A DNA stretch of 64,000 nucleotides, from NCBI GenBank assembly GCA_052035095.1, contig JBPOHW010000003.1, positions 1,807 through 65,806 on the forward strand, in the 5' to 3' direction. Shown here piece by piece: positions 1,584 through 58,393 of this stretch (position 1 is its first letter; every line of letters begins with the position of its first letter). Under the pieces are notes generated by a model, which saw only the letters and a list, made by a program, of their open reading frames with translations, had not been told where the DNA came from and did not search any database. A program made the translations under genes and the position numbers. This DNA is from Candidatus Moraniibacteriota bacterium (lineage in GTDB: Bacteria; Patescibacteriota; Minisyncoccia; Moranbacterales; UBA1568).

Positions 1584-1591
1584 AAAAACGT

Positions 1592-2254: not shown

Positions 2255-2256
2255 AT

Positions 2257-5199
2257 ATGCGAACAAAAATTTTTGCCACTACTCTCTTCTTTCTCATTTG
2301 TCTCTTTCCCGGAAGCAAGGCCGGATTTTTCGACGGTCTTCCGCCTTCAGCTCTGGAACTCATTATTACAGCCACAATACTCATAGGCATATTTGGAACG
2401 CCCTGGAACAAAAATGCCTTGATGCGAAAAGTAATCATCACCTCGCTTATTTTATTTCTCGCCGGTCAAACGATTTCAAAAACTTTTCTTCCTGTCGGAT
2501 GGAATGTCTGTATTCGTACATCTGCCGGCGCGCCACAAGGAAATTCAGCTTGTGAGCGATCAATCGAATTTCCACGAGGAAAAAAGAGTTTCATATATGA
2601 GACCATCGATTTCTCCAGAGAAAACTTTCCATTGTACTTTCTCAACGACACCTCTCGTTTCAATTTCTTGCGAGCAAACAATGAGCCCGATAGAGGTAAG
2701 CTTCCCTTTTCGATAGCCGCATCCACTTTTTTTCATGCCCAAGCAGATGACTCGCTTCTCATACAATCAGACAAAAATGTTCGCCTCGCAATAAACGATA
2801 CCACCATTCCTCTTGTCACCGACAAAGAAAATTTATTTCAAAAAATAGCACTCACACCGAATACGACCCATCATATTGAAATCATCTATGAGACAAATCG
2901 TAACAAGAAAAACATCCTCGTAGCCAAACTGCCTCGACCGTCATTTTTTACAATAGGAGATACCAAATCCATCCCACATACCGCATGGGCAACAATCTAC
3001 AAATTTGTAAACATATCCATTCTCATTCTTCTTGTTTTGACATTCGCTTGGGCGAAAAAACCGGATATACTCCTTCTCGGAAAATCACAAAAAATAACTC
3101 TCCTCATAGGGACACTTATTCTTATTTCTTTCTGGACACTTGTCACGCAAGATGTCATTGGATTCAAGGAAGCCCTTTTTCCGTTTTCAATATTCCTTAT
3201 TGGTTCTTCTCTTTTATTCGCTTCCTTGAAAAAATCATTAAAAAGAACACTTCTTCCGATCCTATTTCTCGCACTGTTTTTCAATTCATGCATATTTACA
3301 ACCACTCGAACATTTTCGGAAGAAGCGATTATTTTCGGCGGAGGGAATGATCCGATCGGACATGAATGGTATGCTCGCAGAGTATTTCTTTCGACAAGCC
3401 TTGAGGAATTCAGGGATTCCATTGGCTCTAGCGTCGACTACTATCAGCCGCTTCACCGCTATTTTCTCACTGTTTTCCACGTACTGGCCGGAGAGCCAAT
3501 GTGGGGACCATACGCACTTCAGACATTTCTTTTCAGCCTCGCCATTCTTTCACTCATTCTCGTTTTGTGGCAAACCAGCACTGTATCAGCGATTGTTTTT
3601 TCACTTGCCATGGCAGTCTTACTCACTTATGAGCCAACTTCTGCCTTGGAGGCCATCCTTTCTCCACTTCAACAAGCGATAGCGCTTCCTTTCATTATGT
3701 TTGCTTTCGCAATTCTTCTTTCTCTTCTGACACAAGAACAAGAAACGCGACAAGAAAAAAATATCCGGATGTTTTTTCTTTTGGGACTTTCCTTTGGGAC
3801 GGGTTCCATGATGCGAACCGATTGGCTTCCCGCCTTCTCGGGAATTCTTCTGGGAATATTCTTCATCCTTTTTCTTAATGGGAAATATCAGAAAAACATA
3901 TCGAACCAACCAACAGTAAAGCAAATCTTCTTCTCCAATATTATTTTCTACAAAAAAAGTCTTTTTCTTTTCTTCATCGGACTTTCTATTTTTCCATTCC
4001 TTATTGGTATGAAGAATTACATCTTCGCCGGACAGTTTTCATTCCTCCCTACAAGCGGTTTTGTCAATCTTCTCCCGGAAATCAAAGAAGCGGTCGACGA
4101 TAATATATCGTACTACGAAAATTCAACCGGAGTATTTCTTCAAGAAATTATACGCGGATTCTCCGGTCGATATGACGAACTCGCGGAAATTCTTCTCAAA
4201 AATGCGTATAAGGATATCATACGTCCGACCATTGTACGAATCGCTTTTTGGACTCTCTCGGTAATCGTCGTTCTTCTCTCCATTTTTCTTTTTTCGCATA
4301 TGCGCAAAACGCATTCGTTAGCATATATGAAACTCGGTAGCATCCTCTGTTCATTTCTCATACTAATTGGCATCGGATCATTTTTCGGACAACATAACGG
4401 TATTGCCATGATCGCCATATATGATATCCTTGTCGCGATCATTCTCGCTCTCAGCGCGCATATTATAGTGGATCGATTTGAAATCATGAAAAAACTCAAG
4501 CAAACCTATCGAAACAAATCAGACAGCCTTCAACAATATCTTCGCATAAACAGAGAGCTTTCCAAATTTCTCCTCTCGAGAATTCCACCTCATTCCGGAT
4601 TCTTGGATAGGATGAAAATAGCTTATCGCCCTTACATTTGTCCATTCTCCGATCTTCTCAATCTCCTTCCCAATCAATCTTCGATTTTCGACATCGGCTG
4701 TGGCAACGGCATGTTTCTCGCTCTCGTTTCAAAATTCAAGCTTCCAAAAGCAATAGGCGGTGTAGAGATATCAAAAAAACTCATCGATAACGCAATAACT
4801 ATTCTCGAGAATTCCAGCGTCGGAAAGAACGATCAGATCTCGATTCATACTTTTGACGGACAAACTATTCCTCATGAAATACGATCATATGAGTACATTT
4901 TCATGATTGATGTTCTCCATCACATCCCAAAGACAGCTCAAGTTGAATTTCTTAGAAAAGTTACTCATACTATGTCCGTCGGATCAAAGCTCATTCTAAA
5001 AGATATCGATGGAAGCCGTCCGTTTCTTTCAAAGTTCAACAAATTGCATGATCTCTTATTCTCGGGAGAGATCGGACACGAATTAAATCCGAAGTATGTC
5101 TTGCGAGAACTTATCCGTATGAATCTGAAGATTCACTTGATGCATAAAAAAAGAATATTTCTCTATCCTCACTACACCATCGTTTGCGAAAAAGTTTAA
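2257..5199 (+). CDS. Large polytopic membrane protein (putative GT-C-type glycosyltransferase) fused to a C-terminal class I SAM-dependent methyltransferase domain
   Basis: About 730 aa with many predicted TM helices and an early extracytoplasmic loop; C-terminal about 230 aa carries FDIGCGNGMFLAL...IFMIDVLHHIP...LILKDI methyltransferase motifs. Confidence 0.55.
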   Translation: MRTKIFATTLFFLICLFPGSKAGFFDGLPPSALELIITATILIGIFGTPWNKNALMRKVIITSLILFLAGQTISKTFLPVGWNVCIRTSAGAPQGNSACERSIEFPRGKKSFIYETIDFSRENFPLYFLNDTSRFNFLRANNEPDRGKLPFSIAASTFFHAQADDSLLIQSDKNVRLAINDTTIPLVTDKENLFQKIALTPNTTHHIEIIYETNRNKKNILVAKLPRPSFFTIGDTKSIPHTAWATIYKFVNISILILLVLTFAWAKKPDILLLGKSQKITLLIGTLILISFWTLVTQDVIGFKEALFPFSIFLIGSSLLFASLKKSLKRTLLPILFLALFFNSCIFTTTRTFSEEAIIFGGGNDPIGHEWYARRVFLSTSLEEFRDSIGSSVDYYQPLHRYFLTVFHVLAGEPMWGPYALQTFLFSLAILSLILVLWQTSTVSAIVFSLAMAVLLTYEPTSALEAILSPLQQAIALPFIMFAFAILLSLLTQEQETRQEKNIRMFFLLGLSFGTGSMMRTDWLPAFSGILLGIFFILFLNGKYQKNISNQPTVKQIFFSNIIFYKKSLFLFFIGLSIFPFLIGMKNYIFAGQFSFLPTSGFVNLLPEIKEAVDDNISYYENSTGVFLQEIIRGFSGRYDELAEILLKNAYKDIIRPTIVRIAFWTLSVIVVLLSIFLFSHMRKTHSLAYMKLGSILCSFLILIGIGSFFGQHNGIAMIAIYDILVAIILALSAHIIVDRFEIMKKLKQTYRNKSDSLQQYLRINRELSKFLLSRIPPHSGFLDRMKIAYRPYICPFSDLLNLLPNQSSIFDIGCGNGMFLALVSKFKLPKAIGGVEISKKLIDNAITILENSSVGKNDQISIHTFDGQTIPHEIRSYEYIFMIDVLHHIPKTAQVEFLRKVTHTMSVGSKLILKDIDGSRPFLSKFNKLHDLLFSGEIGHELNPKYVLRELIRMNLKIHLMHKKRIFLYPHYTIVCEKV

Positions 5200-5241: not shown

Positions 5242-6333
5242 ATGCGAAAAAATCACATTTCTTTTCTCGTTGATCCCGAAACATTCGAGCCTCTTTCACC
5301 TTCACACTCCTTCGAAGAAAATCTTAATCATATCACTTCTGGAATTCTCTCAAGTGAAAAAAATTGGTACCCGATCATAAACAGTATTCCGCGGCTCCTT
5401 GTGGGAAAACTCAAAATAAATCTCTTGCAAACACATCAGGGCTTCTTCAAACGATTTCACGCGGCACTTCCAAAAAATATCTCGGAAGAATGGCAAAAAG
5501 CGATAGACGCCATACCCGATCTCAACCGCTTTTGGAAACACCAGAAAAAAACCGCCGAGAGTTTCGCCTATGAATGGAAATATATCTACAAAGAAAACGA
5601 TTACGAGAAACAAAACTTCTTTCATTTCCTCTCACCCTTTGTTACGGAAAAGGATTTGAAAGGAAAAAAAACGCTCGATATCGGGTGCGGATCGGGGCGC
5701 TTCACCAAATGGTCGGCACTCTCCGGTGCGGAGATCGCCTTCGGGAGCGACTTGGGCGAAACCGTCGAGGTCGCCTACGAAATGACCAAGGGTCTGCCGA
5801 ATGCCTGTATCGTACAGGCGGATATCTATCATATGCCCTTCAAGGATACGTTCGACCTCGCCTACTCGATCGGTGTGCTCCATCATCTTCCCAAACCCCA
5901 AGAAGGATTCTCACGTCTTCCGAAAGTTTTAAAATCTAGCGGGCAAATGCTCATCTGGGTCTACAACCGCCGCCACAACGCCCGCGCCATCTATGTATAC
6001 GAACCACTCCGATCGATTCTCAAGAAACTTCCGAAGCCACTCCTCTTCAAGCTCTGCTATCTCCCCGGCGGCATTGTTCACAGCATCAACCTCTTCGGAA
6101 CGTTTCTGAAAAAAGTCGGGCTCGAGAAATTATCAGGAAAACTCCCCTTCTCGTACTATGCAAATTTCCCTTTTAATATGAAATTGAATGATGCTTTCGA
6201 CGTTCTTGCGACGCCAAAGAGCAACTACTACTATCGGGAAGCAGTCGAACAATGGTTCCGAAGCGCCAAGCTGAAAGATATCCGGGCATACGAACACCCG
6301 GAAGCGGGAATTACCTGTATCGGAACGCGATAA
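5242..6333 (+). CDS. Class I SAM-dependent methyltransferase
   Basis: LDIGCGSGRFTKW...IVQADIYHMPF...SIGVLHHLP motifs I/II/III; N-terminal Trm112-like FLVDPETFEPL segment. Confidence 0.7.
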   Translation: MRKNHISFLVDPETFEPLSPSHSFEENLNHITSGILSSEKNWYPIINSIPRLLVGKLKINLLQTHQGFFKRFHAALPKNISEEWQKAIDAIPDLNRFWKHQKKTAESFAYEWKYIYKENDYEKQNFFHFLSPFVTEKDLKGKKTLDIGCGSGRFTKWSALSGAEIAFGSDLGETVEVAYEMTKGLPNACIVQADIYHMPFKDTFDLAYSIGVLHHLPKPQEGFSRLPKVLKSSGQMLIWVYNRRHNARAIYVYEPLRSILKKLPKPLLFKLCYLPGGIVHSINLFGTFLKKVGLEKLSGKLPFSYYANFPFNMKLNDAFDVLATPKSNYYYREAVEQWFRSAKLKDIRAYEHPEAGITCIGTR

Positions 6334-6341
6334 CGTGCTCT

Positions 6342-7487
6342 ATGTCAAAGAAGAGAATACTCCACATCATTCAGTCACTCGGAAACGGCGGATGCGAAAA
6401 TATGCTGCTCCGCACCCTCCCCCTCCTTGCGGACGAATTCGAACACCACATCATCACCCTCCGCGAATTTGGCGAGCTCGCGCCACGATTTATTGAGAAA
6501 GGAATCTCCGTTACGACGATTCATCAAATCGGCTTTTTCGACATTTCGGGCTACCGGAGGCTCCTTCTGGAAACAAACCGGTTCAATCCCGACACCGTCA
6601 TCACGTACCTCTTCCATGCCGACATGATCGGACGATTTTTCTTGCAAAAGAAAATTTCTATCCCCATCATTCCCTTCCTTCGCACCACCTACAATCACCC
6701 GAGATATTTCATTGCGAGACTCTTCGAAAAAATTACTAAGCACCGTGTCAAACAGTACCTCGCCAATTCCGAAGCGGTCAAAGATTTCTACGTCAAAAAA
6801 ATCGGCGTCCAACCCGAGAAAATCACCGTCATCCCGAACGGCATCGACACCGAGTATTTCGACAGCATCCTCCCCAACCCAAATCTCCGCGCATCACCTG
6901 GTATCGCTCCTCACGACTTCGTCATTATCTGTGTCGCCAATTTTCATATCAACAAAGGTCACCGATACCTCCTCGAAGCCTTCGAGTCGCTCTTCCCGAA
7001 ATTCCGGCACGCAAAACTCCTCCTCATCGGCGATGGTTCCAAGCGAAAAAATCTTGAGCGACAAATCAACGCTTACCAAGCGAAACATTCCATTCTCTTC
7101 CTCGGACGCCGTACCGATGTCCCGCAACTCCTCAAGATTTCCGATTGTTTTGTTCTTCCCACACTCTTCGAAGGCATGAGTAATGCCCTGATTGAAGCGA
7201 TGGCCACCGGTCTCCCTGTTATCACAACCGATATTCCGGAAAATCGCGAGCTTATCGAACACGAAAAGACTGGCATTTTTGTCCAACCAAAAGATTCACA
7301 TGCGCTCACCAAGGCAATCGAACAACTCCTTGATAGTCCGGAAAAATGTGAAACCCTTGGAAAGAACGCTAAGTACGACATTCGAAGACGGTTTGACATA
7401 AATACTTCCATTTCAAAATTCAACAATTTTCTCAACTCTTTTATCGTACATAGAATGAAAAATGAGAAACCTTACAAAAAAAATTAA
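6342..7487 (+). CDS. Glycosyltransferase family 4 (GT-B)
   Basis: MSKKRILHIIQSLGNGG N-terminus and C-terminal FVLPTLFEGMSNALIEAMATGLPVITTD GT4 signature; start chosen at the internal ATG (ORF extends upstream to 6252 overlapping the previous gene). Confidence 0.8.
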   Translation: MSKKRILHIIQSLGNGGCENMLLRTLPLLADEFEHHIITLREFGELAPRFIEKGISVTTIHQIGFFDISGYRRLLLETNRFNPDTVITYLFHADMIGRFFLQKKISIPIIPFLRTTYNHPRYFIARLFEKITKHRVKQYLANSEAVKDFYVKKIGVQPEKITVIPNGIDTEYFDSILPNPNLRASPGIAPHDFVIICVANFHINKGHRYLLEAFESLFPKFRHAKLLLIGDGSKRKNLERQINAYQAKHSILFLGRRTDVPQLLKISDCFVLPTLFEGMSNALIEAMATGLPVITTDIPENRELIEHEKTGIFVQPKDSHALTKAIEQLLDSPEKCETLGKNAKYDIRRRFDINTSISKFNNFLNSFIVHRMKNEKPYKKN

Positions 7488-7506
7488 AATCAGTTTCTTT
7501 TTCCAT

Positions 7507-8565
7507 ATGAAAGACAAACCATCAATAAAGATAGTTCTCGAAAAAAGATCTGACGCAGTAGGTATCTACAATAATAAAATCTTATCTTACTTAAGAAAAA
7601 AACCAAACGTAGAATTTATTCTCCTTAATAATAAGCGTTTCAAAAAAAATATTCTCAATCGTATTTTTGAATTCTTCAACACACTAAAGATTATTTTTAC
7701 GATTGACCATAATGACATCGTTTTATTTACCGATCCCCTGCCATTCAATTTTTTGGCAAACTTATTTATAAAAAACAAAAAATTCGTCATTTTTTTTCAC
7801 TACGAACAAGATCCATCTTATTATAGATTTCTTCCTGCTATTTCTCTAAGCTCTGTCTTAAAAAAATCTGATGGAATCATATGCAGCTCTGCTTATTCAC
7901 TCTCCCAACTCCAACTCCTCAACATTGATCAAAGAAAATGCACCATCATCCATTGCGGAGTGGATCATAAAATATTTACTCCACCACTAACTAGAGAAAC
8001 TCTTTATCCTTTCGAGTATATTCTCAGCATAGGATCCGAAGAAAAGAGAAAAAACATGGAGAATATTCTTAAAACTCTCAAGATACTAAAAAGATATTTT
8101 CCTCACTTAAAACTCTTAAAAGTTGGGAAAGCAAGCTCAAGTAACCGAAAAAACACACTCTTTTGGGTAAAGAAGCTCAATCTAGACAATGATGTCGTTT
8201 TCACTGATTTCTTAGAAGAAAAGTCTCTACCAAAAATATATTCCAATTCAAGACTTCTTTTGTTTCCGTCCCTCCTCGAGGGCTTCGGTCTCCCGATTAT
8301 AGAAGCCATGGCATGTGGATGTCCGGTTGTAACATCCAATAGAAATCCCATGAAAGAGCTTGTTGGACCGGAACAACAGACCGTAGATCCACTCAATCCG
8401 AGTGACATCGCGGATACGTGTAAAAAAATTCTTTCGGATAAAAACTATCGAGATACCCTTATTCAAATCGGTATCAAGAGATCTGAAAAATTTGACTGGA
8501 AAAAAACAGCAAACGAAGTGTACTCATATTTAATAAAAAAGGATAAAAAGACAAAAGAACAATAA
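7507..8565 (+). CDS. Glycosyltransferase family 4 (GT-B)
   Basis: C-terminal LLLFPSLLEGFGLPIIEAMACGCPVVTSN motif; markedly AT-rich coding sequence; start ambiguous (7462 or 7507). Confidence 0.7.
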   Translation: MKDKPSIKIVLEKRSDAVGIYNNKILSYLRKKPNVEFILLNNKRFKKNILNRIFEFFNTLKIIFTIDHNDIVLFTDPLPFNFLANLFIKNKKFVIFFHYEQDPSYYRFLPAISLSSVLKKSDGIICSSAYSLSQLQLLNIDQRKCTIIHCGVDHKIFTPPLTRETLYPFEYILSIGSEEKRKNMENILKTLKILKRYFPHLKLLKVGKASSSNRKNTLFWVKKLNLDNDVVFTDFLEEKSLPKIYSNSRLLLFPSLLEGFGLPIIEAMACGCPVVTSNRNPMKELVGPEQQTVDPLNPSDIADTCKKILSDKNYRDTLIQIGIKRSEKFDWKKTANEVYSYLIKKDKKTKEQ

Positions 8566-8573
8566 ACGCCTTT

Positions 8574-9311
8574 TCACTTCTTGGCTACAGCCAAAAGACT
8601 TGAAGTGTATATATCTTGCTTATCGTACCCGAGAATTTGAATAAAAATTTTGAAGAAAAAAAGCGTAATTTTTCTCAATATATTCAACCAAAAATTCCCA
8701 ACTCCATAAAAGTTCTTCATCTCCACCCTTTTGAATCCCGCAACAACAAGTACTTGTCGCAAACTCAAGTTCGTAAAACCGATCTCATGAGTTATGTCTC
8801 CGTATCTGCCCGCGGTAGAATTAAAATAAGCAGCGCAATTTGGAACAACAATAATAATCGTGCCACCATCAACCAATCTATTTCTTACCTCTTCAAGAAA
8901 TCCAAAAAGATTTTCTTTTTTAATATGTTCCAATACATGTGACAAATATATGACATCAAACTTTTCTTTTTCGGAAAGAAGGTATTTATAAATATCAGCC
9001 TGAACAAACTTGTAAGATCTGAATAATTTTTTACACACGACTATTTCTTCTGTTGATATATCAACACCAGTAACATTCTTGTATCCGTGTGCTTGTAGAA
9101 AAAAAAGAAAACTTCCATAGCCACATCCCAGATCCAAAATAGCCCTTTCTTTGCTGATTTTTGTTTTAAACAGACGTCCCAGGTTATATTCCAACGGAAT
9201 TTTATTTTTCTTAAGCAGTGTCACTACCTGATTTTCATCGGAAAAATCCGTTTTTTCACAATTCGAGTAATGATTTGTAAGGTAGTTGTCGAATATTTTT
9301 CTATTGTCCAT
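8574..9311 (-). CDS. Class I SAM-dependent methyltransferase
   Basis: ILDLGCGYGSFLFFL...FDVIYLSHVLEHI...GGTIIIVVPN motifs. Confidence 0.7.
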   Translation of the reverse strand: MDNRKIFDNYLTNHYSNCEKTDFSDENQVVTLLKKNKIPLEYNLGRLFKTKISKERAILDLGCGYGSFLFFLQAHGYKNVTGVDISTEEIVVCKKLFRSYKFVQADIYKYLLSEKEKFDVIYLSHVLEHIKKENLFGFLEEVRNRLVDGGTIIIVVPNCAAYFNSTAGRYGDITHEIGFTNLSLRQVLVVAGFKRVEMKNFYGVGNFWLNILRKITLFFFKIFIQILGYDKQDIYTSSLLAVAKK

Positions 9312-10158
9312 CAGCGTTTGTTATCGGCTTATTTCCTTTCACATAGATTTTATTCAGACCAAAAAATAAATATACCAAGTAGAGAAATTGCTCGAGAACA
9401 CGCCTGTACCCTCGAGCATTAAACCGAATGTGATATTTTATAAGAGCAATGAGATTTATTTTGAACATCAAATATACCTGTCGTTTTAGCATAAAAACAC
9501 TCACAGATCCGGCATGGAGTCTTTTTTTGTACAATACTTCCGGCATATTTTCAAAGCGAACGCCCTGTGAAAACCACCGGAACCAGAGCTCGACATCTTC
9601 AGCGTGGTCATAGTTCGAGTCGTAATATCCATAATCGGCAAAGAGACTTCGTTTCATCATGCACGTGGGATTGTGTACTGGCGGCTTGCCATCATGAATG
9701 TCACTTGAATCCGCAGAAACCACGGCTTTACATTGTTCAGGCGAAGCATTGAGGAATAGACAATAAGAAGATCCCAGAATGTCCGTATCGGGGTTTTTGC
9801 GAAAATACCTCACTTGCTTTTCAAATCTGTCAGGTGGGCAAATATCATCAGAGTCGACTATTACTATAAAATTGCCTTTAGCCACTTTAATAGCCTTATT
9901 TCTCGCTTCAGATTGTCCCAAATTTACAGCATTTTTTATGTATATAATCCTTTTGTCTTTTTTAGCGAATTCTTGAATGATACTTTCACTATTATCATAA
10001 GAACCATCATTGATAATGATAAACTCAAATCGAGCATATGTTTGCGACAAAACACTCTCGATTGATTCATAAAGGTATTTCCCATTATTATAAGTGGCCA
10101 TCACGACGGAAAGTAACGGATCCGATGTCGCTTTTTCTTTATTATTCTCGGAATTCAT
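9301..10158 (-). CDS. Glycosyltransferase family 2 (GT-A)
   Basis: LLSVVMATYNNGKYLYESIESVLSQTY...FEFIIINDGSYD...DSDD motifs. Confidence 0.8.
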   Translation of the reverse strand: MNSENNKEKATSDPLLSVVMATYNNGKYLYESIESVLSQTYARFEFIIINDGSYDNSESIIQEFAKKDKRIIYIKNAVNLGQSEARNKAIKVAKGNFIVIVDSDDICPPDRFEKQVRYFRKNPDTDILGSSYCLFLNASPEQCKAVVSADSSDIHDGKPPVHNPTCMMKRSLFADYGYYDSNYDHAEDVELWFRWFSQGVRFENMPEVLYKKRLHAGSVSVFMLKRQVYLMFKINLIALIKYHIRFNARGYRRVLEQFLYLVYLFFGLNKIYVKGNKPITNADGQ

Positions 10159-10166
10159 AACTTGTT

Positions 10167-11144
10167 TTATTTTTCCGAAATCCTTTTCATGTCCGCATCA
10201 ACCATCATGGAAACCAATTCATCGAATTTAACTCTCGGTTTCCATCCAAGTATTTTTTTTGCTTTATTGTTCGCTCCATGTAGCGAAAACAACTCAGCCG
10301 GCCTCTTAAATCGCGGATCCAATTTCACGTATCGCTTCCAATCGCGAATACCAACATGCTTAAAAGCAAGCTCGAGGAAATCTCGAATCGAGTGGGTTTC
10401 TCCGGTTGACACTATATAGTTATCCGGCTTACTTTGCTGGAGCATGAGCCACATAGCCTCAACATAATCACCTGCAAATCCCCAATCGCGCTTACTCTCA
10501 AGATTCCCCAATCGTATTTCTTTTGCCAATCCCAACTTTATTCTTGCCACCCCATCGGTTATTTTCCGCGTCACAAACTCCATTCCCCGAATGGGAGATT
10601 CGTGATTGAATAATATACCGTTTGTGCAATACATACCATAACTCTCTTTGAAGTTAACCGTCATCCAATAGGCATACAATTTGGAAATAGCATAGGGGCT
10701 TCTCGGATGAAATGGCGTTTCCTCCGTTTGTAAACCATCGCTATGGCTATTGCCAAACATCTCGCTAGTTGACGCTTGGTAAAATTTCGTGGTCGGCGAA
10801 AAATATTTGATGGCATTTAACAAATGAAGGACGCCCAAGGCGTTAATTTCGGTGGTAATTTTTGATTGATCCCATGATACTCCAACGAAAGATTGTGCTG
10901 CCAAATTGTAGACCTCATCCGGATGAAACGTTTTAATAAGATTCATGATCGACGCTTCATCCGTCATATCTCCGGATATAAAAGCAATCTTTTCCGTTAC
11001 ACCCAGATAATCGGTATTGCAAAAATTCGGGTTAGCATAACGCCGTATGAGCCCGAAAACCTCATAATCCTTCTCCAAAAGCAACTTGGCGAGATATGGA
11101 CCATCCTGACCCAAAATACCAGTTATAAGCGCTGTTTTTTTCAT
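10167..11144 (-). CDS. gmd: GDP-mannose 4,6-dehydratase
   Basis: MKKTALITGILGQDGPYLAKLLLEKDYEVFGLIRR..., short-chain dehydrogenase fold with the Gmd-typical N-terminus and NHESPIRG motif; ORF extends to 11183 but MKKTALITG is the likely start. Confidence 0.85.
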   Translation of the reverse strand: MKKTALITGILGQDGPYLAKLLLEKDYEVFGLIRRYANPNFCNTDYLGVTEKIAFISGDMTDEASIMNLIKTFHPDEVYNLAAQSFVGVSWDQSKITTEINALGVLHLLNAIKYFSPTTKFYQASTSEMFGNSHSDGLQTEETPFHPRSPYAISKLYAYWMTVNFKESYGMYCTNGILFNHESPIRGMEFVTRKITDGVARIKLGLAKEIRLGNLESKRDWGFAGDYVEAMWLMLQQSKPDNYIVSTGETHSIRDFLELAFKHVGIRDWKRYVKLDPRFKRPAELFSLHGANNKAKKILGWKPRVKFDELVSMMVDADMKRISEK

Positions 11145-11186
11145 ATTCCTGAAAAAATTATAAATTCTTTTTTTGCAATCCACTTC

Positions 11187-12326
11187 TTATAGACCACTTT
11201 CTATATATACCCGGAAAACACACTCTTCGAGAGCAAACACCGTATGGGGAATATTCGCGGCGACCCATGCCGACTGACCATCATTCAGGTGAAACGTTTC
11301 CTTTTCCGATATCAACATGAGCGAACCCTTACTAATATATATATGCTTCATTGGCAGTTTTTTGATTCGAGCGACATCAGGGCAGTACTGATACTTACTG
11401 CTGTGACCTTTGGCAAGAATGTACTCCTTTCCTTCAGTCGATTTCGGAGCAGCGCTTCGTCCGACACGGAAATATTTTGGATACAAACCCCGTTTTATCA
11501 AAGAAGAATTGCTCAATCTATTATCATCGTCCCAGTTTGCAAACAGCTCTTCTTTAAGTCCACCCACAACGAAAGGGAGCAATTCCGAATCACAGTCAAA
11601 AAGTGACTTCTCCAAATTAAACGGGGTTGCGGGAGAATAGATAACAAATCGAATGCCTAAACTTGAAACTATTTTATTTAGAAAAAACCAAAAAGCTCTG
11701 TTTCTCGGATACATGAAAAAACAATTTTCCATAAACACTTGCAAAAGAAACGGCACTTTTACGAGAATTTTCCTTTCAATCTCCAAAAGTTTCTGAAAAT
11801 ACCGTTTCGTGCAAATGCCTGCCAATGAATACGGATAGAAGTGATTACTATTTTTCTTCAAAAAACTGGAATTTTTCCCGTCAAACTGAAAAAAGAAGAA
11901 GTGTTTCGAATAATCAGGGTACAGTCCCTCGGCGCTCCCAACGCTTAAACCGACATTGAAAAAAGAATACGTAAAACAATCGATTTTCGAATCCATCATA
12001 TCTTGAATGACGTCCCTGAAATGATCGAGAGATTTCAAAAGAAAATGATCCTCAAGAAAAACATAAACATACTCATATTTTGAATTCTCAAACATCTTTC
12101 TTGTGCTTTTCGCCCAATCATTCTCATTAAGACCAGAGAAAAAAATGCAGTTTCTTTCAACATTGTCAAAAGTCTCTTGAATATATTTCAGGACATCTCC
12201 GCGGTATTTTCCCCGAATATTGATGAGCCAGTTATCGGAAATGCCATACACCCGAGAGAAGGTTTCTTTGAACAACTCGAGCTTCGATTTCGAATGTATG
12301 AAAACATTACAGAGGGCGGTTATCAT
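11187..12326 (-). CDS. Hypothetical protein with C-terminal cupin-like domain (possible sugar isomerase/epimerase)
   Basis: C-terminal ...FHLNDGQSAWVAANIPHTVFALEECVFRVYIESGL resembles a cupin beta-barrel; N-terminal 250 aa unrecognised; sits between gmd and the C-methyltransferase. Confidence 0.35.
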   Translation of the reverse strand: MITALCNVFIHSKSKLELFKETFSRVYGISDNWLINIRGKYRGDVLKYIQETFDNVERNCIFFSGLNENDWAKSTRKMFENSKYEYVYVFLEDHFLLKSLDHFRDVIQDMMDSKIDCFTYSFFNVGLSVGSAEGLYPDYSKHFFFFQFDGKNSSFLKKNSNHFYPYSLAGICTKRYFQKLLEIERKILVKVPFLLQVFMENCFFMYPRNRAFWFFLNKIVSSLGIRFVIYSPATPFNLEKSLFDCDSELLPFVVGGLKEELFANWDDDNRLSNSSLIKRGLYPKYFRVGRSAAPKSTEGKEYILAKGHSSKYQYCPDVARIKKLPMKHIYISKGSLMLISEKETFHLNDGQSAWVAANIPHTVFALEECVFRVYIESGL

Positions 12327-12346
12327 ACGGGAAACTATTTAATTAG

Positions 12347-13495
12347 CTATTCGAAAACAACTATCTTCGAATTGATTTTCTTGAGCTGTTTAAATATCTC
12401 ATCTCGGTAAATGCCAACCTTGAGGACAACGCCGACCACACCCTTCCCCTCCAACACTTCCGGACTTTGAACCATAAAGGGCGTCCCGTAGAGGCGCTTC
12501 CCTTGTTTGAGCGAAGAATTGTCCAACAGGGAAACTATTTTTTGTTTATTCAAACCAAATTCGAAAAGATACTGGGCAAAAATGTGAGCGCCAAAAACAT
12601 ATACCTCGCCATCAAAACCGGCAATTTTCTCATTCAAATCCTTCACCATATTCTGATGGTACCGAATAAAATCATCGAATATTTTTTTGTACTCATGATA
12701 TTGATTCTCAAAGATCGCAGCTCCCGATTGTTTAGCTTTCTCCGCGACATAGAAAATACTGTGATCCTTGTAAAAATACTTATCCTTTATGACAAACCCA
12801 TACTTAACAAAGAGATAATCAACAAAATAGTCCGTCAAGAACATCGTGTGCTCGAAATTTATGGCGTTCGTATACTTTCTCTCGAGCCACAGTTTCAAGT
12901 TTGGATAGGCGCACACAATCTTTCCTCCGACAGGAAGAAATTTCGCTATCGAAGAAACAAACGCGTTCGGATCATAGGCGTGTTCCATCACCTGCGAGAA
13001 AACTACCGTATCTATATTTCCCTCATACTCGAAATTTTCGTCAAAAAAAGCGCGGGCAATCTTAATCCGATCACTTCCCAAGTGAAGTGGATTTGGTTCA
13101 ACAAGTGTCCACGATGTCCCTTCAGTACTGCCAATAAAAATATCAGCGAGTTTCCCGGCGCCACCCCCAATTTCAAGAATATCTTTCGATGGTTGCCTTT
13201 GTACATACTCGGCAAAATCATGATAGTACTCTTCCCATGTTGGACCCGTGCCATCTACATGCTGTTCTTGATAAAGAATATCGAGTGGAATAAGTTTTTC
13301 GAGCTGAATGACGCCGGATTCCGGACATATTGCCCAGCTCATATCGGCTTTGACATCTTTTTCAGAGCTATGTTCCACGCACCCGAAAAACACCGGAAAG
13401 TCTTTAAAAGTGTGGAGATGCTTGAGATTTTCTTTTCCGGTGATAACACTTTTTTTTCTAAAAACATATTCCATACGCTTTTTTGGCTTGATCAT
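12347..13495 (-). CDS. NDP-hexose C-methyltransferase-like enzyme (zinc-ribbon + SAM methyltransferase + C-methyltransferase C-terminal domain architecture)
   Basis: ILEIGGGAGKLADIF SAM motif, TylCIII/TcaB9-like domain order with an N-terminal putative zinc-binding region and a long C-terminal domain. Confidence 0.6.
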   Translation of the reverse strand: MIKPKKRMEYVFRKKSVITGKENLKHLHTFKDFPVFFGCVEHSSEKDVKADMSWAICPESGVIQLEKLIPLDILYQEQHVDGTGPTWEEYYHDFAEYVQRQPSKDILEIGGGAGKLADIFIGSTEGTSWTLVEPNPLHLGSDRIKIARAFFDENFEYEGNIDTVVFSQVMEHAYDPNAFVSSIAKFLPVGGKIVCAYPNLKLWLERKYTNAINFEHTMFLTDYFVDYLFVKYGFVIKDKYFYKDHSIFYVAEKAKQSGAAIFENQYHEYKKIFDDFIRYHQNMVKDLNEKIAGFDGEVYVFGAHIFAQYLFEFGLNKQKIVSLLDNSSLKQGKRLYGTPFMVQSPEVLEGKGVVGVVLKVGIYRDEIFKQLKKINSKIVVFE

Positions 13496-14484
13496 CGTTT
13501 TATAAAACTCTTCACAAAAGCTTCAATAATTCCTTCGAACATTGAAATTAAGCGAATTTTTACAATATCTTTCGAATGCACATTATTTTTTCTGATATGC
13601 CTCTGTCCAAAAACGACGAGTCGACTCCCTGCTTGACGATCAAAATGACTCAAATATTCGTCACTTGAAACAATTTTCACATCAGTTTTTCCACATGAAC
13701 GCAAACGCCTTACAAATTCCCGAGTCGTCCATCCTCCATATGGCGCTGAATGAGACTCGAAATTGGTAATAAAGTATCCATACTTTGACGGAACTATCAC
13801 CGAATTAAAATAAGCATCAAGCAAAGAACCTCTCATTTCCGAAAATGCCCCGTTTGAAATCACAAGACCACCACTCCCCTGTCTAGGCGCCAAGGAGTTA
13901 ACACTTTCAAAGCGAGCCGAGTACCCAAAATGCAATAAAAAGCGTTTGATTATTCCATGAGAAGAGGGGAGGTCGTAAATATGCCATTTCTTGCCAAGAT
14001 CTGAATTAAAAAGAGTTACCGCTATATCATTGAAAATTTTACACTCACCACCGTACCCCGCGCCAATATCATGTATTTCTGTCTCACCGTTCAATATATT
14101 CTTTCCAAAAAGAGATAAGCAGTTGAAAGCATTGTTTGCATATCGAATAGTGGTCGGGGAAAGACTGTACCCTGCTTCATAAGGAGAATGGGCGTTAAAG
14201 TCAATCATATGTAAAGGCAACCCTACGGTATCGGAAGCTTGAATCAAAGGTAACGCCTTAAGAAAATCGGCTTCTTTTAATAAGCGTTTCAAATTCCATA
14301 ACCCGCACGATCGCGGAGATCCCTCGATAACTCGTCGAAACGGCTTCGAAGAACGAAAGATGCGATAAAACTCATCATTATTTGCTGCATCAGCACATGC
14401 CCGAACCCAATCGGATTCTTTTGCAGATACAGCATCATTCATATCAATTCGACAAATACTCGACCTCAAGTTATTCGTTTCCAT
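13492..14484 (-). CDS. Hypothetical protein, possible SAM-dependent (sugar O-) methyltransferase
   Basis: EIHDIGAGYGGECKIFNDI resembles SAM-binding motif I; otherwise unrecognised; start overlaps the upstream gene by 4 nt. Confidence 0.35.
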   Translation of the reverse strand: METNNLRSSICRIDMNDAVSAKESDWVRACADAANNDEFYRIFRSSKPFRRVIEGSPRSCGLWNLKRLLKEADFLKALPLIQASDTVGLPLHMIDFNAHSPYEAGYSLSPTTIRYANNAFNCLSLFGKNILNGETEIHDIGAGYGGECKIFNDIAVTLFNSDLGKKWHIYDLPSSHGIIKRFLLHFGYSARFESVNSLAPRQGSGGLVISNGAFSEMRGSLLDAYFNSVIVPSKYGYFITNFESHSAPYGGWTTREFVRRLRSCGKTDVKIVSSDEYLSHFDRQAGSRLVVFGQRHIRKNNVHSKDIVKIRLISMFEGIIEAFVKSFIKR

Positions 14485-14530: not shown

Positions 14531-15061
14531 TCATTTTTTCTTCCATGCTCCCGAGCCTTCTTTCAAGACAAGTGAGTAGATATCGAACGGTTCGTTGAAA
14601 AACTTTTCCAGTATATGCAAACACGCCTCAGCAACCGCCCCATCCCCACCTCGCAGGTTCGTGATAAAATCCGCCTTCTCTTTCGTTGCATAAAAAGCAT
14701 TGGCTGGAGCAATACTATAAGCAACGTGCTTAAAAACAAGTGGATCGAATATGCCGTCACCCATATAAATCGTTTCCGCCGGATCGAACCGATCGCGAAT
14801 CCACTCTATCCGCTCAAAAGTACTCACGAGGTCCAGTGGAAGCTTCATATCGTCGGCTATTCGTCGCTTCGTAATGGCAAAGCCGTTTTTATCACCGGTA
14901 ACCGCATGAATCATGAGTTTTCCCCGAAGAAGAGAAAGGGCGTCGTTATCTTCCGGACCGAACTTCTTCATGACTTTTCCATCGACGGTATAATAAAACG
15001 TACCGTCCGTGAAAACACCATCGACATCAAGAATGAAATTTTTTATTGTTTTCTTTTTCAT
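14531..15061 (-). CDS. HAD-IIIA phosphatase, KdsC-like (sugar-phosphate phosphatase)
   Basis: ILDVDGVFTDG...MGDGIFDPL...GGDGAVAEACLHIL matches the 3-deoxy-manno-octulosonate-8-phosphatase family. Confidence 0.7.
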   Translation of the reverse strand: MKKKTIKNFILDVDGVFTDGTFYYTVDGKVMKKFGPEDNDALSLLRGKLMIHAVTGDKNGFAITKRRIADDMKLPLDLVSTFERIEWIRDRFDPAETIYMGDGIFDPLVFKHVAYSIAPANAFYATKEKADFITNLRGGDGAVAEACLHILEKFFNEPFDIYSLVLKEGSGAWKKK

Positions 15062-15071
15062 ATCAACTGTT

Positions 15072-16646
15072 TTATTTTTCATTGAGCGCACGCCACAAGT
15101 TCAGCTTCCCGAAATAAAAGAGAAACAGATCGAACGGATGATGATGAAGTGGAGACATATTGAGCCAAATGATAGCCGTCAGAAGTTTCACCTTCCTTAC
15201 ATCATAGCCATTTTTCTCCAAAAATCCAAAGAGCACTTTTTGACATTGAACCAAATTTTCCTTGCGTAAAATATCACAAACAATCCTCTCCTTCCCAACA
15301 TCAATGACAAATAGATCATTGTTTACGATCTCATGATTCACTGTCAAATTGTGATTTAACTTCGAAAGATCGTAATACAAATCCCCCGATTTTAGAAGTC
15401 CGCCGAAATTTTGTCGCCAGTCCAAAAGCACATATCCAGATTTATTTTTCAAAAGATTATCAAGAATGAAATCGCCATGAAACCCGCTCTGCTTCGTATC
15501 ACATAGCCAATCAAAGTCAATCACTTCAAGCATTTTTTTAAAAGAAGGTATTTTTTCATCATTAATAACATTCTCCGCATCCTTCACTTTGCGCGAATTG
15601 AGAAACTTTTCAACTCGCTCCACTGTTTTTGTACGATAAAAATCAAAACAAATTTTCTTGAATTCCCGATCCGAAATTTCCCGATTCGGCTTCCAGAGAT
15701 TTTTCTGTGACCAATTCAGAAATCTCCCAAAGTCTATCGGGGTGGCGACTTTTGAATACAGTTTTCCGGTCGCATATTTATAACGATAAAAATTTTTGGT
15801 CGACCCTTGTATTTCCGGCACAAGACCGCGCAAAATTTTGGCCCTCGATACTCGTTGCGCCACCATCTTTTCATCATTGAAAAATTTAACCACAAAACTG
15901 TCAAAAATAAATATTGATTCATCTGATTTATCAAGAATTCGAAATGAGTCCTCAATTTCTTCCCGAGCCCTGTTTAAACTTTCGACATTACCAATATCGT
16001 ACCACTTTTCAAATTCAACCACTCCAAACTCGCTTCCGTCTCCTATCATTTTGCTGATTACCTCGACATCATTAAGTCCGCCATTATTCGGATCTTGTTC
16101 ATACAACTCCCTCAAGTTTTTCCAAAAGAGTTTATATTCTTGCACTCCTATCAAACCGATATGCAAAAAATCCGGATCCATCATTCCTTTGTCATACATT
16201 TGTTGCACTTTTCCGTCGACGACATCAAATGAAGCGTAGTGAGAAGATCCCTCACCCTGAAATCCTCCTATCCAATTTGACTTCGGCAAAGGAATTTTTC
16301 TCCCAGCAACAATCGTGTCACAAGCATGATAAATAAATGGGCATTGTAATTGGGAAGATGCTTGCAACATGGAATATCCAAGACTTGTTCCCGGGCCCTC
16401 ATATTTGTCCACTTCGACAAATTTGAAATTTCTTTCCGGATAAACCAGTTTCAAAAAATCACACACTTGATCACCAAAATAACCCACAGTTATAACAAAC
16501 TCCGTATTCTTCGGATACTGCTCAATGATATAAGAAATAGCCGGCTTCTTTCCGACTTTCACAAGAGACTTGTTCGTATACTTGGTTATTTCTCCCAATC
16601 GTGATCCTGTTCCGGACGTGGTAAGAAGGACCTTACAGGCAGCCAT
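15072..16646 (-). CDS. Bifunctional sugar-phosphate nucleotidyltransferase (N-terminal) / APH-ChoK-family kinase (C-terminal)
   Basis: N-terminus VLLTTSGTGSRLGEITKYTNKSLVKVG is a nucleotidyltransferase G-loop; C-terminus HGDFILDNLL...LLDWRQNFGG is the Brenner kinase motif; LicC/LicA-like order. Confidence 0.6.
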   Translation of the reverse strand: MAACKVLLTTSGTGSRLGEITKYTNKSLVKVGKKPAISYIIEQYPKNTEFVITVGYFGDQVCDFLKLVYPERNFKFVEVDKYEGPGTSLGYSMLQASSQLQCPFIYHACDTIVAGRKIPLPKSNWIGGFQGEGSSHYASFDVVDGKVQQMYDKGMMDPDFLHIGLIGVQEYKLFWKNLRELYEQDPNNGGLNDVEVISKMIGDGSEFGVVEFEKWYDIGNVESLNRAREEIEDSFRILDKSDESIFIFDSFVVKFFNDEKMVAQRVSRAKILRGLVPEIQGSTKNFYRYKYATGKLYSKVATPIDFGRFLNWSQKNLWKPNREISDREFKKICFDFYRTKTVERVEKFLNSRKVKDAENVINDEKIPSFKKMLEVIDFDWLCDTKQSGFHGDFILDNLLKNKSGYVLLDWRQNFGGLLKSGDLYYDLSKLNHNLTVNHEIVNNDLFVIDVGKERIVCDILRKENLVQCQKVLFGFLEKNGYDVRKVKLLTAIIWLNMSPLHHHPFDLFLFYFGKLNLWRALNEK

Positions 16647-16649
16647 AAT

Positions 16650-17366
16650 TTAGACAGCTCTCATTTTTTGAATAACCGAAACTGACCGATCAATGTTTCC
16701 TCGAAACTCTCTGATTTTTTCATCAAGCGGTTTTTCTTTTTTGTAGATAACCGACGTGCCGCATACCAACACAGTTGCCCCGGCAGCTATCATGAGCGGA
16801 CCGCTTTCCGGAGTCACCCCGCCGTCAATTTCGATTTCGATATCACTCTTTCCCAATGCATCCAGCTTCTTTCGGAGATCCATAATCTTCTGCACGGAAA
16901 AAGGAACTAGCTTGTGTCCGACAATTCCCGGATTGATAGCCATGAGCATTACAACGTCGATGTCATCCAATATGTAGTCAAGCACAGAGAGTGGAGTCGC
17001 CAGGTTAAGCGCCACCCCTGGTTTTACTCCCTCGTTTTTTATAAGAGAAACCGCGCGATGGAGATGATTGGTAGCCTCCGCATGTACAACAACATACGTT
17101 GCCCCAGCCTTTGCAAACTCCGTGACATACTTCTCTGGAGAACGCGTCATCATGTGCACATCAATAGGAAGACTTGTCACTGATCGAATATCCCGGAGCA
17201 GTTCAGGGTAAAGACCGTATCGAGGAACAAAGTCCCCATCCATGACATCAAAATGAATCGAATCAATACCACCCTTTTCAAGAAGACGAATTTCCTCCGC
17301 AAAAGTCATAGCATTCCCACAGATGAATGACGCTGATAACTTGTAGCTTCTTGTCATGGCTTCCAT
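16650..17366 (-). CDS. rpe: Ribulose-phosphate 3-epimerase family
   Basis: KLSASFICGN...IHFDVMDGDFVP...MAINPGIVG...IDGGV motifs. Confidence 0.8.
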   Translation of the reverse strand: MEAMTRSYKLSASFICGNAMTFAEEIRLLEKGGIDSIHFDVMDGDFVPRYGLYPELLRDIRSVTSLPIDVHMMTRSPEKYVTEFAKAGATYVVVHAEATNHLHRAVSLIKNEGVKPGVALNLATPLSVLDYILDDIDVVMLMAINPGIVGHKLVPFSVQKIMDLRKKLDALGKSDIEIEIDGGVTPESGPLMIAAGATVLVCGTSVIYKKEKPLDEKIREFRGNIDRSVSVIQKMRAV

Positions 17367-17372
17367 AGTTTT

Positions 17373-17900
17373 TTATTCAAGGTTGGAGTGTCGAGCCCAC
17401 ATTGTCTCATGAGTTTCCTCGAGAAGATCCATGAGCACCAATACAAGCGCGTCATAAAAAATAAAAAGACACTGTTCGTTCAGCGTCGTCATTGGTTGAA
17501 CGGAAGAAAATCCTTCCACTGGCTTGGTCTTTGAGGGAGCCTTGATTTCAACTATCGTATCAGCAAGTTTTCCCATCCTCGATTCCGGATTTCCGGTCAC
17601 AAGCGCGACTCTTGCCCCATTTTTCTTGGCAATTTCAACAAGATCATAAATGGTTTGGGTCTCACCGGATCCGGAACTCACCAAGAAGAGATCTCCAGAA
17701 CCGATAGACGGAACCACCGAATCGCCAAGCGTAAACGCATCCCGCCCAAGATGTTTCAATCGCATGCCAAATGATCGCGTCGCCATCCCTACTCTCCCCG
17801 CTCCGCACACCACAATCTTTTTCGCTCGTATAATGTCCGCAATGAGACCAATTACTTGTTCCTCCTGCAGTGACTCAAGCACTACTTTCATTTCACTCAT
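17373..17900 (-). CDS. hxlB: 6-phospho-3-hexuloisomerase (SIS domain)
   Basis: VVCGAGRVGMATRSFGMRL...LVSSGSGETQ...VQPMTTLNEQCLFIFYDALVLVLM...HSNLE closely parallels HxlB/PHI rather than GmhA. Confidence 0.65.
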   Translation of the reverse strand: MSEMKVVLESLQEEQVIGLIADIIRAKKIVVCGAGRVGMATRSFGMRLKHLGRDAFTLGDSVVPSIGSGDLFLVSSGSGETQTIYDLVEIAKKNGARVALVTGNPESRMGKLADTIVEIKAPSKTKPVEGFSSVQPMTTLNEQCLFIFYDALVLVLMDLLEETHETMWARHSNLE

Positions 17901-17982
17901 TATCACCTGTATTCTTCTCTTTATCATAGTAATTACGGCATTACAACAAGAAAAATTCATCCAGAAAACATCCTCTACTAGA

Positions 17983-34764: not shown

Positions 34765-34765
34765 A

Positions 34766-58360: not shown

Positions 58361-58393
58361 ACATTTCACTCTCCAGTGCTACCATTTCCCCAT

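Follow-up and report, generated by a model that had tools for sequence, protein, structure and literature searches.

Introduction

Methylated and branched sugars shape the recognition of bacterial surfaces by phages, hosts and partner cells. The published system closest to the arrangement considered here is the proposed virenose (6-deoxy-3-C-methylgulose) pathway of Coxiella burnetii, which combines a GDP-mannose 4,6-dehydratase (Gmd) with the TylCIII-like methyltransferase CBU_0691, 44% identical to TylCIII. Sugar activation of a related logic is found in the GDP-D-glycero-alpha-D-manno-heptose pathway (GmhA, HddA, GmhB, HddC), which brings together a SIS-fold isomerase, a kinase, a HAD phosphatase and a nucleotidyltransferase, and in the AmgK-MurU and LicA-LicC systems, which pair an APH-fold kinase with a small nucleotidyltransferase. 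Here, a stretch of 64,000 nucleotides from a Candidatus Moraniibacteriota bacterium (contig JBPOHW010000003.1, positions 1,807 to 65,806; referred to as the window) is analysed, in which one operon encodes an S-adenosylmethionine (SAM)-dependent methyltransferase with the TcaB9 fold, a Gmd and four sugar-phosphate enzymes.

The organism belongs to the Candidate Phyla Radiation (CPR), a group about whose surface glycans, to our knowledge, almost nothing is known. A first-pass annotation of the window had proposed that Gmd and the methyltransferase together make a C-branched, multiply O-methylated 6-deoxyhexose. The parts list and the shared operon stand, but the pairing is not kept across related loci. 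Judged from gene neighbourhoods, the methyltransferase belongs to a widespread, uncharacterised cassette and is not specifically paired with Gmd. The interpretation favoured here, at about even confidence, is that this cassette can by itself turn a ketose phosphate into a methylated, NDP-activated (nucleoside diphosphate) rare hexose, with the genes for Gmd, a GT2 glycosyltransferase and a 245-amino acid (aa) methyltransferase (MT245) as an accessory set.

Gene neighbourhood of the methyltransferase

The comparison covered 76 loci (73 from GTDB genomes and three places holding one close relative), scored by tblastn and by clustering of open reading frames (ORFs); the 35 in which the methyltransferase gene is flanked by 8 kb or more in both directions are referred to as complete. 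A KdsC-like HAD phosphatase is present in 64 of the 76 loci and a nucleotidyltransferase/kinase, invariably as the full fusion, in 63, whilst each occurs in 33 of the complete loci. An extended short-chain dehydrogenase/reductase (SDR) of any kind lies within 8 kb of the methyltransferase in 16 complete loci and within 3 kb in only 6. Gmd itself adjoins the methyltransferase in this window and in just five Moranbacteria-type loci (L001-L004 and L027, from three assemblies), a figure in which the locus of one relative is counted three times, as L001-L003. By this comparison, joint action of Gmd and the methyltransferase is not upheld, since extended SDRs are so seldom close by and the constant partners are other genes. 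These partners (14531-17960) were missed by the first-pass annotation because its interval ended at 14484.

The sugar-phosphate enzymes that feed the cassette come as two alternative pairs. Pair A, found in the window, consists of a ribulose-phosphate 3-epimerase-like (Rpe-like) protein (27 of 76 loci) and a SIS-domain isomerase (23 of 76); pair B consists of a GatZ/KbaZ-like protein and a small cupin (31 of 76 each), the latter matching the phosphomannose isomerase (PMI) domain of bifunctional GDP-mannose pyrophosphorylase/PMI (GMP/PMI) enzymes. Both pairs are made up of an epimerase-type enzyme and a ketose/aldose-phosphate isomerase. Rpe-like and GatZ-like genes are never found together in one locus, and 32 of the complete loci contain one or the other (13 and 19, respectively). 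On a neighbour-joining tree of the methyltransferase the feeder types are interleaved, and syntenic Bdellovibrionales loci differ mainly by feeder type; the tree of the nucleotidyltransferase/kinase tracks feeder type more closely.

The cassette is found in CPR bacteria, Bdellovibrionota, Chlorobi, Proteobacteria, Bacteroidota, cyanobacteria and SAR11, and its cultured carriers include Chlorobium ferrooxidans DSM 13031, Aliiglaciecola lipolytica E3, Solidesulfovibrio aerotolerans DSM 16695 and Synechococcus sp. MU1642. Nearer to the window, the complete Moraniibacteriota genome CP064974.1 encodes a close relative of the methyltransferase in a near-identical locus that is without the UbiA-PHP-980-aa block and the 330-aa gene described below.

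Two further genes recur among the cassettes. One scores as shikimate dehydrogenase (cluster c18; TIGR00507 201.6, cutoff 200.2) and lies inside 11 cassettes, mostly of the GatZ/cupin type (L022, L026, L045, L052, L060, L068 and others). The other, present in many cassettes (L004, L011, L015, L017, L032-L034, L036-L038, L040, L045 and L065), encodes a separate nucleotidyltransferase of ~235-285 aa in addition to the fusion, with whose N-terminal domain it shares 45-52% identity; this is a hint that two activation steps, or two nucleotides, are involved.

Feeder and activation enzymes

In the window, the nucleotidyltransferase/kinase is a fusion of 524 aa. Compared with the PDB, its profile finds LicC (E 3e-10) and HddC (E 3e-6), and the nucleotidyltransferase domain also has weak similarity to MurU. 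The kinase domain carries an APH-type motif (HGDFxxDN...DWR) and matches Pfam APH with E 0.012; it gave no PDB sequence match, even by profile. Amongst the feeder enzymes, the Rpe-like protein scores 208.9 against the TIGR01163 cutoff of 212.6, and the SIS protein, classed as 6-phospho-3-hexuloisomerase (PHI) type (Table 1), reaches 18.4 bits with the gmhA model, for which the cutoff is 209.

The TcaB9-fold methyltransferase

The AlphaFold model of the methyltransferase (predicted local distance difference test, pLDDT, 91) matches MtmC, TcaB9 and KijD1 over its full length; these account for the top 18 PDB matches found by Foldseek (E 1e-23 to 1e-19, template modelling (TM) score 0.72-0.77), with the next-best methyltransferases covering the core domain alone (E ~1e-8). 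Positions 49-363 of the family profile align to TcaB9 residues 54-393 (E 1.6e-5). H172, E215 and H216, invariant in 35 sequences, correspond to TcaB9 H181, E224 and H225, and the class I SAM-binding motif is intact. The TcaB9/TylCIII-type architecture assigned earlier is thus borne out by the fold and by a profile alignment that runs nearly end to end, and the protein is not an ordinary methyltransferase without the C-methyltransferase C-terminal domain, as all three domains are present.

Other features of the group have changed. The four-cysteine zinc site of the N-terminal domain is not kept (the family varies at every cysteine position but C39), and TcaB9 Tyr222 is replaced by Asn213. The score with Pfam Methyltransf_14 (PF08484) is 19.5 bits, under the cutoff of 23.5, with some close homologues having a precomputed PF08484 match; the protein has no match to Methyltransf_13 (PF08421). 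The family is large (1527 matches) and well conserved. Identity to solved C-methyltransferases is 13-17%, compared with the 44% between CBU_0691 and TylCIII, and the chemistry is therefore not secured: methylation may fall on carbon or on oxygen. An ORF of 389 aa on the plus strand (12467-13636), antisense to the methyltransferase gene and longer than it, is a low-complexity, AT-rich artefact.

The adjoining GT-A-like/cupin protein

Directly downstream of the methyltransferase, 32 loci encode a relative of the 379-aa protein of the window, and 11 others have a glycosyltransferase (GT)-like gene in this place. The first-pass annotation had called the product a cupin protein, which holds for a small, degenerate cupin of ~85 aa at the C-terminus, whilst residues 1-265 form a GT-A-like domain (AlphaFold model, pLDDT 87). 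In Foldseek searches the cupin matches generic Cupin_2 proteins (E 1e-5) and the N-terminal domain weakly matches TarP/WrtF; the Pfam Cupin_2 match (E 0.006) is under threshold, and a single-sequence PDB search with the protein found nothing significant. By eye, the N-terminal domain does not have the glycine-rich motif of nucleotidyltransferases. Sugar epimerases and isomerases of the RmlC/FdtA type are cupins throughout (~130-180 aa) with catalytic or metal residues, and this assignment was rejected given the short, C-terminal cupin and its missing ligand motif.

The cupin aligns with the PMI-like cupin of the B-type loci with an hhalign probability of 97%, and most PMI metal ligands are missing from it (QYC in place of QYH, no Glu, and no HxH...E motif). 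In P0215, a distant relative of 469 aa, a PHI-like SIS domain takes the place of the C-terminal cupin, a Rosetta-stone-type fusion that would tie the GT-A-like domain to the isomerase of the cassette. Because of its position after the methyltransferase, its PMI-like cupin homology and this SIS-bearing relative, the 379-aa protein is a candidate for the dedicated transferase of the cassette sugar, with a recognition domain that may have been borrowed from the pathway. The 274-aa gene c13 of the B-type cassettes was considered as a split homologue of the N-terminal domain and rejected (hhalign probability <1%).

Gmd and the absent reductase

The identification of Gmd holds, with its best PDB match being the Pseudomonas aeruginosa enzyme (1RPN, E 1e-126). 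It scores 408.9 bits with Pfam PF16363 (cutoff 27) and 405.3 with the equivalog model TIGR01472, slightly under the cutoff of 415; the likely true start is an ATG 14 codons inside the listed one. The gene lies two genes downstream of the methyltransferase in the same tightly packed operon.

Six-frame scans of the whole 64 kb, by phmmer (six different extended SDRs as queries) and by an HMM derived from 49 SDRs, found no second extended-SDR ORF and so no nearby Fcl, Rmd or Tld partner. This agrees with the earlier observation that an Fcl/Rmd-type reductase is not encoded in the window. A 313-aa ORF (21686-22627) considered as the missing reductase was rejected as a C39-like peptidase, and the SDRs near PMT_2 in L001 and L027, considered as Rmd or Fcl, by eye resemble the UDP-glucuronate 4-epimerase type. 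Domain annotation of the window ORFs also found no ManB or ManC to provide GDP-mannose. Short Gmd enzymes of the P. aeruginosa type are reported to reduce their own product, and MtmC, the top structural match of the methyltransferase, is also a 4-ketoreductase; the missing reductase could be accounted for by either activity.

Proposed pathway

From gene content and fold we infer the following order of steps. The Rpe-like epimerase and the PHI-like SIS isomerase would turn a central ketose phosphate, most simply fructose-6-phosphate, into an unusual sugar phosphate. The APH-like kinase, the KdsC-like phosphatase and the nucleotidyltransferase would then lead from this sugar phosphate, via a 1,6-bisphosphate or the free sugar, to the sugar-1-phosphate and the NDP-sugar. 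The TcaB9-fold enzyme may methylate this NDP-sugar, consistent with NDP-sugar binding by the fold in the solved TcaB9, KijD1 and MtmC enzymes, and the GT-A-like/cupin protein would transfer the methylated sugar. The Gmd-GT2-MT245 set and the putative 330-aa methyltransferase, add-ons of the Moranbacteria lineage, would supply and decorate a 6-deoxyhexose, of D-rhamnose type if the short Gmd, like that of P. aeruginosa, also reduces its product.

Several sugars are candidates by analogy with known enzymes. If the Rpe-like enzyme acts as AlsE, the sugar might be altrose or allose derived from allulose-6-phosphate, and in the GatZ/PMI-type loci it might be talose or galactose derived from tagatose-6-phosphate. 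Both locus types could arrive at the same tagatose-6-phosphate if the PHI-like and Rpe-like enzymes work via a 3-hexulose intermediate, in which C3-C6 have the same structure as C2-C5 of ribulose-5-phosphate.

A number of points weigh against this pathway. All solved enzymes of the TcaB9 fold are C-methyltransferases and depend on a 4-keto sugar, and the methylation step is chemically unexplained because the cassette has no constant keto-generating enzyme; here, Gmd is two genes away and could supply the keto sugar. The SIS protein scores as a 6-phospho-3-hexuloisomerase, a ketose-ketose rather than a ketose-aldose isomerase, and the nucleotidyltransferase domain finds its best PDB match in LicC, a phospho-alcohol cytidylyltransferase. 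Co-occurrence demonstrates linkage rather than reaction order, many of the loci are short contigs of metagenome-assembled genomes, and the trees have no support values. Literature searches on the gene combination found no published description of the cassette. The fold could be reconciled with a cassette that has no keto-generating enzyme in three ways: by O-methylation, by a dehydratase encoded elsewhere (here Gmd), or by the carbonyl of a CDP-ketose activating the neighbouring carbon.

That the cassette represents an undescribed NDP-sugar pathway, with two non-homologous feeder pairs, activation by a nucleotidyltransferase/APH-kinase fusion and a KdsC-type phosphatase, and methylation by a TcaB9-fold enzyme without a dehydratase, is put forward tentatively, as somewhat short of an even chance. 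If true, the cassette would be a new, self-contained means of producing an activated rare hexose and would widen the chemistry of the TcaB9 fold, since methylation without a dehydratase would mean either an O-methyltransferase with this fold, of which we know none, or a new route to a C-branched sugar. The question is directly testable, as cultured carriers exist. For annotation, a C-methyltransferase fold beside gmd is insufficient to predict a branched 6-deoxyhexose.

Alternative explanations

The model of the first-pass annotation, in which Gmd yields GDP-4-keto-6-deoxymannose and the TcaB9-fold enzyme methylates it at C3 or C5 to give a virenose-like branched 6-deoxyhexose, is considered unlikely. 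The remaining methyltransferases would O-methylate the polymer, and 4-keto reduction would fall to the methyltransferase, to a bifunctional short Gmd or to an enzyme encoded elsewhere, for which the ketoreductase activity of MtmC and the self-reducing P. aeruginosa-type Gmd are precedents. The complete C-methyltransferase fold with its conserved catalytic His and Glu, the genuine Gmd in the same operon and the retention of this arrangement in the five Moranbacteria-type loci all favour the model, and C-methylation by a GDP route has been proposed for virenose. However, the family as a whole has no link to Gmd or any 4,6-dehydratase, its constant partners being the nucleotidyltransferase/kinase and the HAD phosphatase; the methyltransferase is only distantly related to the solved C-methyltransferases, and the four neighbouring sugar-phosphate genes would be left without a role.

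Those four genes do find a role if the module makes a GDP-hexose epimer of mannose (e.g. GDP-altrose or GDP-talose) that the Gmd-like enzyme dehydrates and the TcaB9-fold enzyme C-methylates. This unified pathway would explain the keto group for the C-methyltransferase and is consistent with the single operon of eleven genes and with a window that has no ManB or ManC as a source of GDP-mannose, whilst the PMI-like cupin isomerase of the alternative feeder suggests a manno-type configuration at C2. It is nonetheless improbable, given how close Gmd is to canonical GDP-mannose dehydratases and that most cassettes are without Gmd and would need a dehydratase from elsewhere.

A CDP-linked ketose or alditol phosphate for phospho-sugar decoration, made in the manner of LicC, TarI, CDP-6-fructose or CDP-xylulose, would need no dehydratase, as C-methylation would take place at a chemically sensible site beside a free ketone. 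The match to the phosphocholine cytidylyltransferase LicC, the choline-kinase/APH type of the kinase, feeders that yield ketose phosphates and the shikimate dehydrogenase-like reductase inside 11 cassettes fit this scheme, but it is slightly less probable still, as it gives no obvious role to the universally conserved kinase and phosphatase, the B-type feeder has a PMI-like ketose-to-aldose isomerase, and no LicD-type or TarL-type phosphotransferase is found among the annotated window ORFs. A Kdo-like pathway (arabinose-5-phosphate isomerase and KdsC) was rejected, with no KdsA or KdsB homologue in the window or among the conserved cassette genes.

Organisation of the locus and its flanks

Positions 1 to ~19400 are best explained as a Wzx-dependent locus for a surface glycan, of low GC content, in a Candidatus Moranbacteria bacterium. 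GC content is 0.41 in the first ~19.4 kb and 0.51 over the rest of the window, and most island genes have a third-position GC of 0.33-0.45 compared with 0.50-0.65 for housekeeping genes. Island proteins are 55-88% identical to counterparts in lower-GC Moraniibacteriota which, together with the foreign composition, points to lateral transfer between members of the CPR. The right-hand boundary of the island is marked by neither a tRNA nor a repeat, and the left-hand edge is outside the window.

The island consists of two convergent, tightly packed operons (Table 1). On the plus strand, AsnB, which runs in from the left window edge, is followed by the UbiA-type and PHP proteins, the 980-aa membrane protein/methyltransferase, the 363-aa methyltransferase and two GT4 enzymes. 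The minus-strand operon (19329 to 8574) contains eleven genes with intergenic gaps of no more than 46 bp, in the order Wzx, SIS, Rpe-like, nucleotidyltransferase/kinase, KdsC-like HAD, 330-aa protein, 382-aa methyltransferase, 379-aa protein, Gmd, GT2 and 245-aa methyltransferase. The UbiA-PHP-980-aa block (675-5199), between AsnB and the 363-aa methyltransferase, is missing from the syntenic Moraniibacteriota loci L001-L004; it may provide a polyprenyl-phosphate-pentose donor along with a transferase and a methylase dedicated to it.

Table 1. Features of the glycan locus and its right flank (positions in the window)
Feature	Position	Strand	Basis
UbiA-family decaprenyl-phosphate phosphoribosyltransferase-like	675..1583	+	NCBIfam NF008977 281.9 bits, cutoff 234
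PHP-domain metallophosphatase	1592..2254	+	Pfam PHP and PHP_C
Polytopic membrane protein, 980 aa, with C-terminal class I methyltransferase	2257..5199	+	Pfam Methyltransf_23/12/25/11
Class I SAM methyltransferase, 363 aa, core residues 127-246	5242..6333	+	Pfam Methyltransf_11 E 1e-15, residues 145-238
GT4 glycosyltransferase	6252..7487	+	Pfam Glycos_transf_1 E 6e-42
GT4 glycosyltransferase	7462..8565	+	Pfam Glycos_transf_1 E 4e-31
Class I SAM methyltransferase, 245 aa, last gene of minus-strand operon	8574..9311	-	Pfam Methyltransf_11/25 E 3e-17
GT2 glycosyltransferase	9301..10158	-	Pfam Glycos_transf_2 E 5e-39
Short-type GDP-mannose 4,6-dehydratase (Gmd)	10167..11183	-	Pfam GDP_Man_Dehyd E 3e-122
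Two-domain protein, GT-A-like (aa 1-265) and degenerate cupin (aa ~295-379)	11187..12326	-	AlphaFold model, Foldseek
SAM methyltransferase, 382 aa, full TcaB9/KijD1/MtmC three-domain fold	12347..13495	-	AlphaFold model and family profile
Probable divergent class I SAM methyltransferase, 330 aa	13492..14484	-	Invariant motif and Asp, model matches of relatives
KdsC/YrbI-like HAD sugar-phosphate phosphatase	14531..15091	-	NCBIfam KdsC E 3e-18, under cutoff
LicC/RmlA/HddC-like nucleotidyltransferase (aa 1-~240) and APH-like kinase (aa ~250-524) fusion	15072..16646	-	Profile, Pfam APH
Ribulose-phosphate/allulose-6-phosphate 3-epimerase-like (Rpe-like)	16650..17366	-	Pfam Ribul_P_3_epim E 3e-59
SIS-domain isomerase, PHI type	17373..17960	-	TIGR03127 187.3, cutoff 160
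Wzx-type flippase, first gene of minus-strand operon	17983..19329	-	Pfam Polysacc_synt E 9e-21
PMT_2/ArnT-like GT-C glycosyltransferase, host-like GC, flanking the island	19477..20928	+	Pfam PMT_2, GC profile

The island was annotated earlier as having four to five SAM methyltransferases, and five such domains are indeed found, four of them plain class I enzymes by Pfam and the fifth (330 aa) a probable one; the two GT4 and one GT2 assignments are likewise confirmed by Pfam. In the 980-aa protein the methyltransferase domain comprises residues 797-957 (nucleotides 4645-5127) and is preceded by at least ten hydrophobic segments on the hydropathy profile. The position of the 363-aa methyltransferase beside a GT4 and AsnB is conserved in relatives.

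The 330-aa protein has no Pfam match of its own, a single-sequence PDB search gave nothing significant, and its family profile reaches only E 0.011 against the PDB, with a faint match of the protein to the sugar O-methyltransferase NanM. Its family of 909 relatives has an invariant E-I-G-x-G-x-G-G motif and downstream Asp, and 6 of 34 relatives match class I methyltransferase Pfam models, so that the earlier wording, probably a class I methyltransferase, is justified. Besides this window, just three related loci carry the gene.

The C39-like peptidase-domain protein (minus strand) adjoins the glycan locus and is followed by an 880-aa UvrA-like ABC ATPase. Past ~21.6 kb the window contains housekeeping genes, including those for the UvrA-like protein, Dus, a P-type ATPase, MgsA, RseP, SerRS, RecG, a sigma-70 factor and ValRS. 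Every named relative of the SerRS is from Candidatus Moranbacteria/Moraniibacteriota (70-73% identity), which places the host in the CPR. The sigma-70 factor (49062-50921, minus strand, 619 aa) has recognisable sigma regions confined to its last ~300 residues and scores far under the RpoD cutoffs, and ValRS (58376-61408, plus strand, 1010 aa) is matched by its model in two separate stretches with residues ~485-578 unmatched; both peculiarities may be CPR-typical insertions. Two adjacent radical-SAM ORFs (33625-35848, minus strand), the first of MiaB/RimO type with a UPF0004 domain, overlap by ~120 nucleotides and may be a frameshifted or split gene.

Comparison with known systems

The Coxiella virenose proposal likewise places Gmd and a TylCIII-like methyltransferase in a lipopolysaccharide or glycan locus. 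It differs in including epimerase and reductase steps for which there is no candidate here, and the methyltransferase of the window is a remote relative in another gene context. With the NDP-hexose C-3-methyltransferases TcaB9, KijD1, MtmC and TylCIII, the enzyme of the window shares the three-domain fold, the SAM motif and the His/Glu/His residues. Unlike them, it is encoded in a surface-glycan locus rather than an antibiotic cluster and is not co-conserved with a 4,6-dehydratase; low sequence identity, the lost zinc cysteines, the Tyr222 to Asn replacement and a sub-threshold Methyltransf_14 score further set it apart.

Like the GDP-heptose pathway, the cassette unites a SIS-fold isomerase, a kinase, a HAD phosphatase and a nucleotidyltransferase in one locus, and its nucleotidyltransferase domain detectably resembles HddC. 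In contrast, the SIS protein is of PHI type, the kinase has an APH rather than a GHMP fold and is part of a fusion, the HAD protein is of KdsC rather than GmhB type, and a ketose-phosphate epimerase is added. As far as homology can tell, the likeness is therefore one of logic only, with enzymes that are not orthologous to GmhA, HddA and GmhB. The kinase and nucleotidyltransferase recall AmgK-MurU and LicA-LicC in the pairing of their folds and in the weak MurU and LicC similarities, but here they are fused in the order nucleotidyltransferase-kinase and always occur together with a phosphatase of KdsC-like type and a methyltransferase of the TcaB9 fold.

A similar relation holds for type II PMI and GMP-PMI enzymes (ManC, AlgA, XanB), whose PMI domain is matched by the small cupin of the B-type loci and whose layout, a Rossmann-like GT-A domain followed by a C-terminal cupin, is also that of the 379-aa protein, which lacks the glycine-rich nucleotidyltransferase motif and most PMI metal ligands. 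Across these comparisons, the cassette is familiar in its logic and its folds. It is new in its combination of genes, in drawing on enzymes that are not orthologous, in having two feeder pairs that can replace each other and in uncoupling a TcaB9-fold enzyme from a dehydratase.

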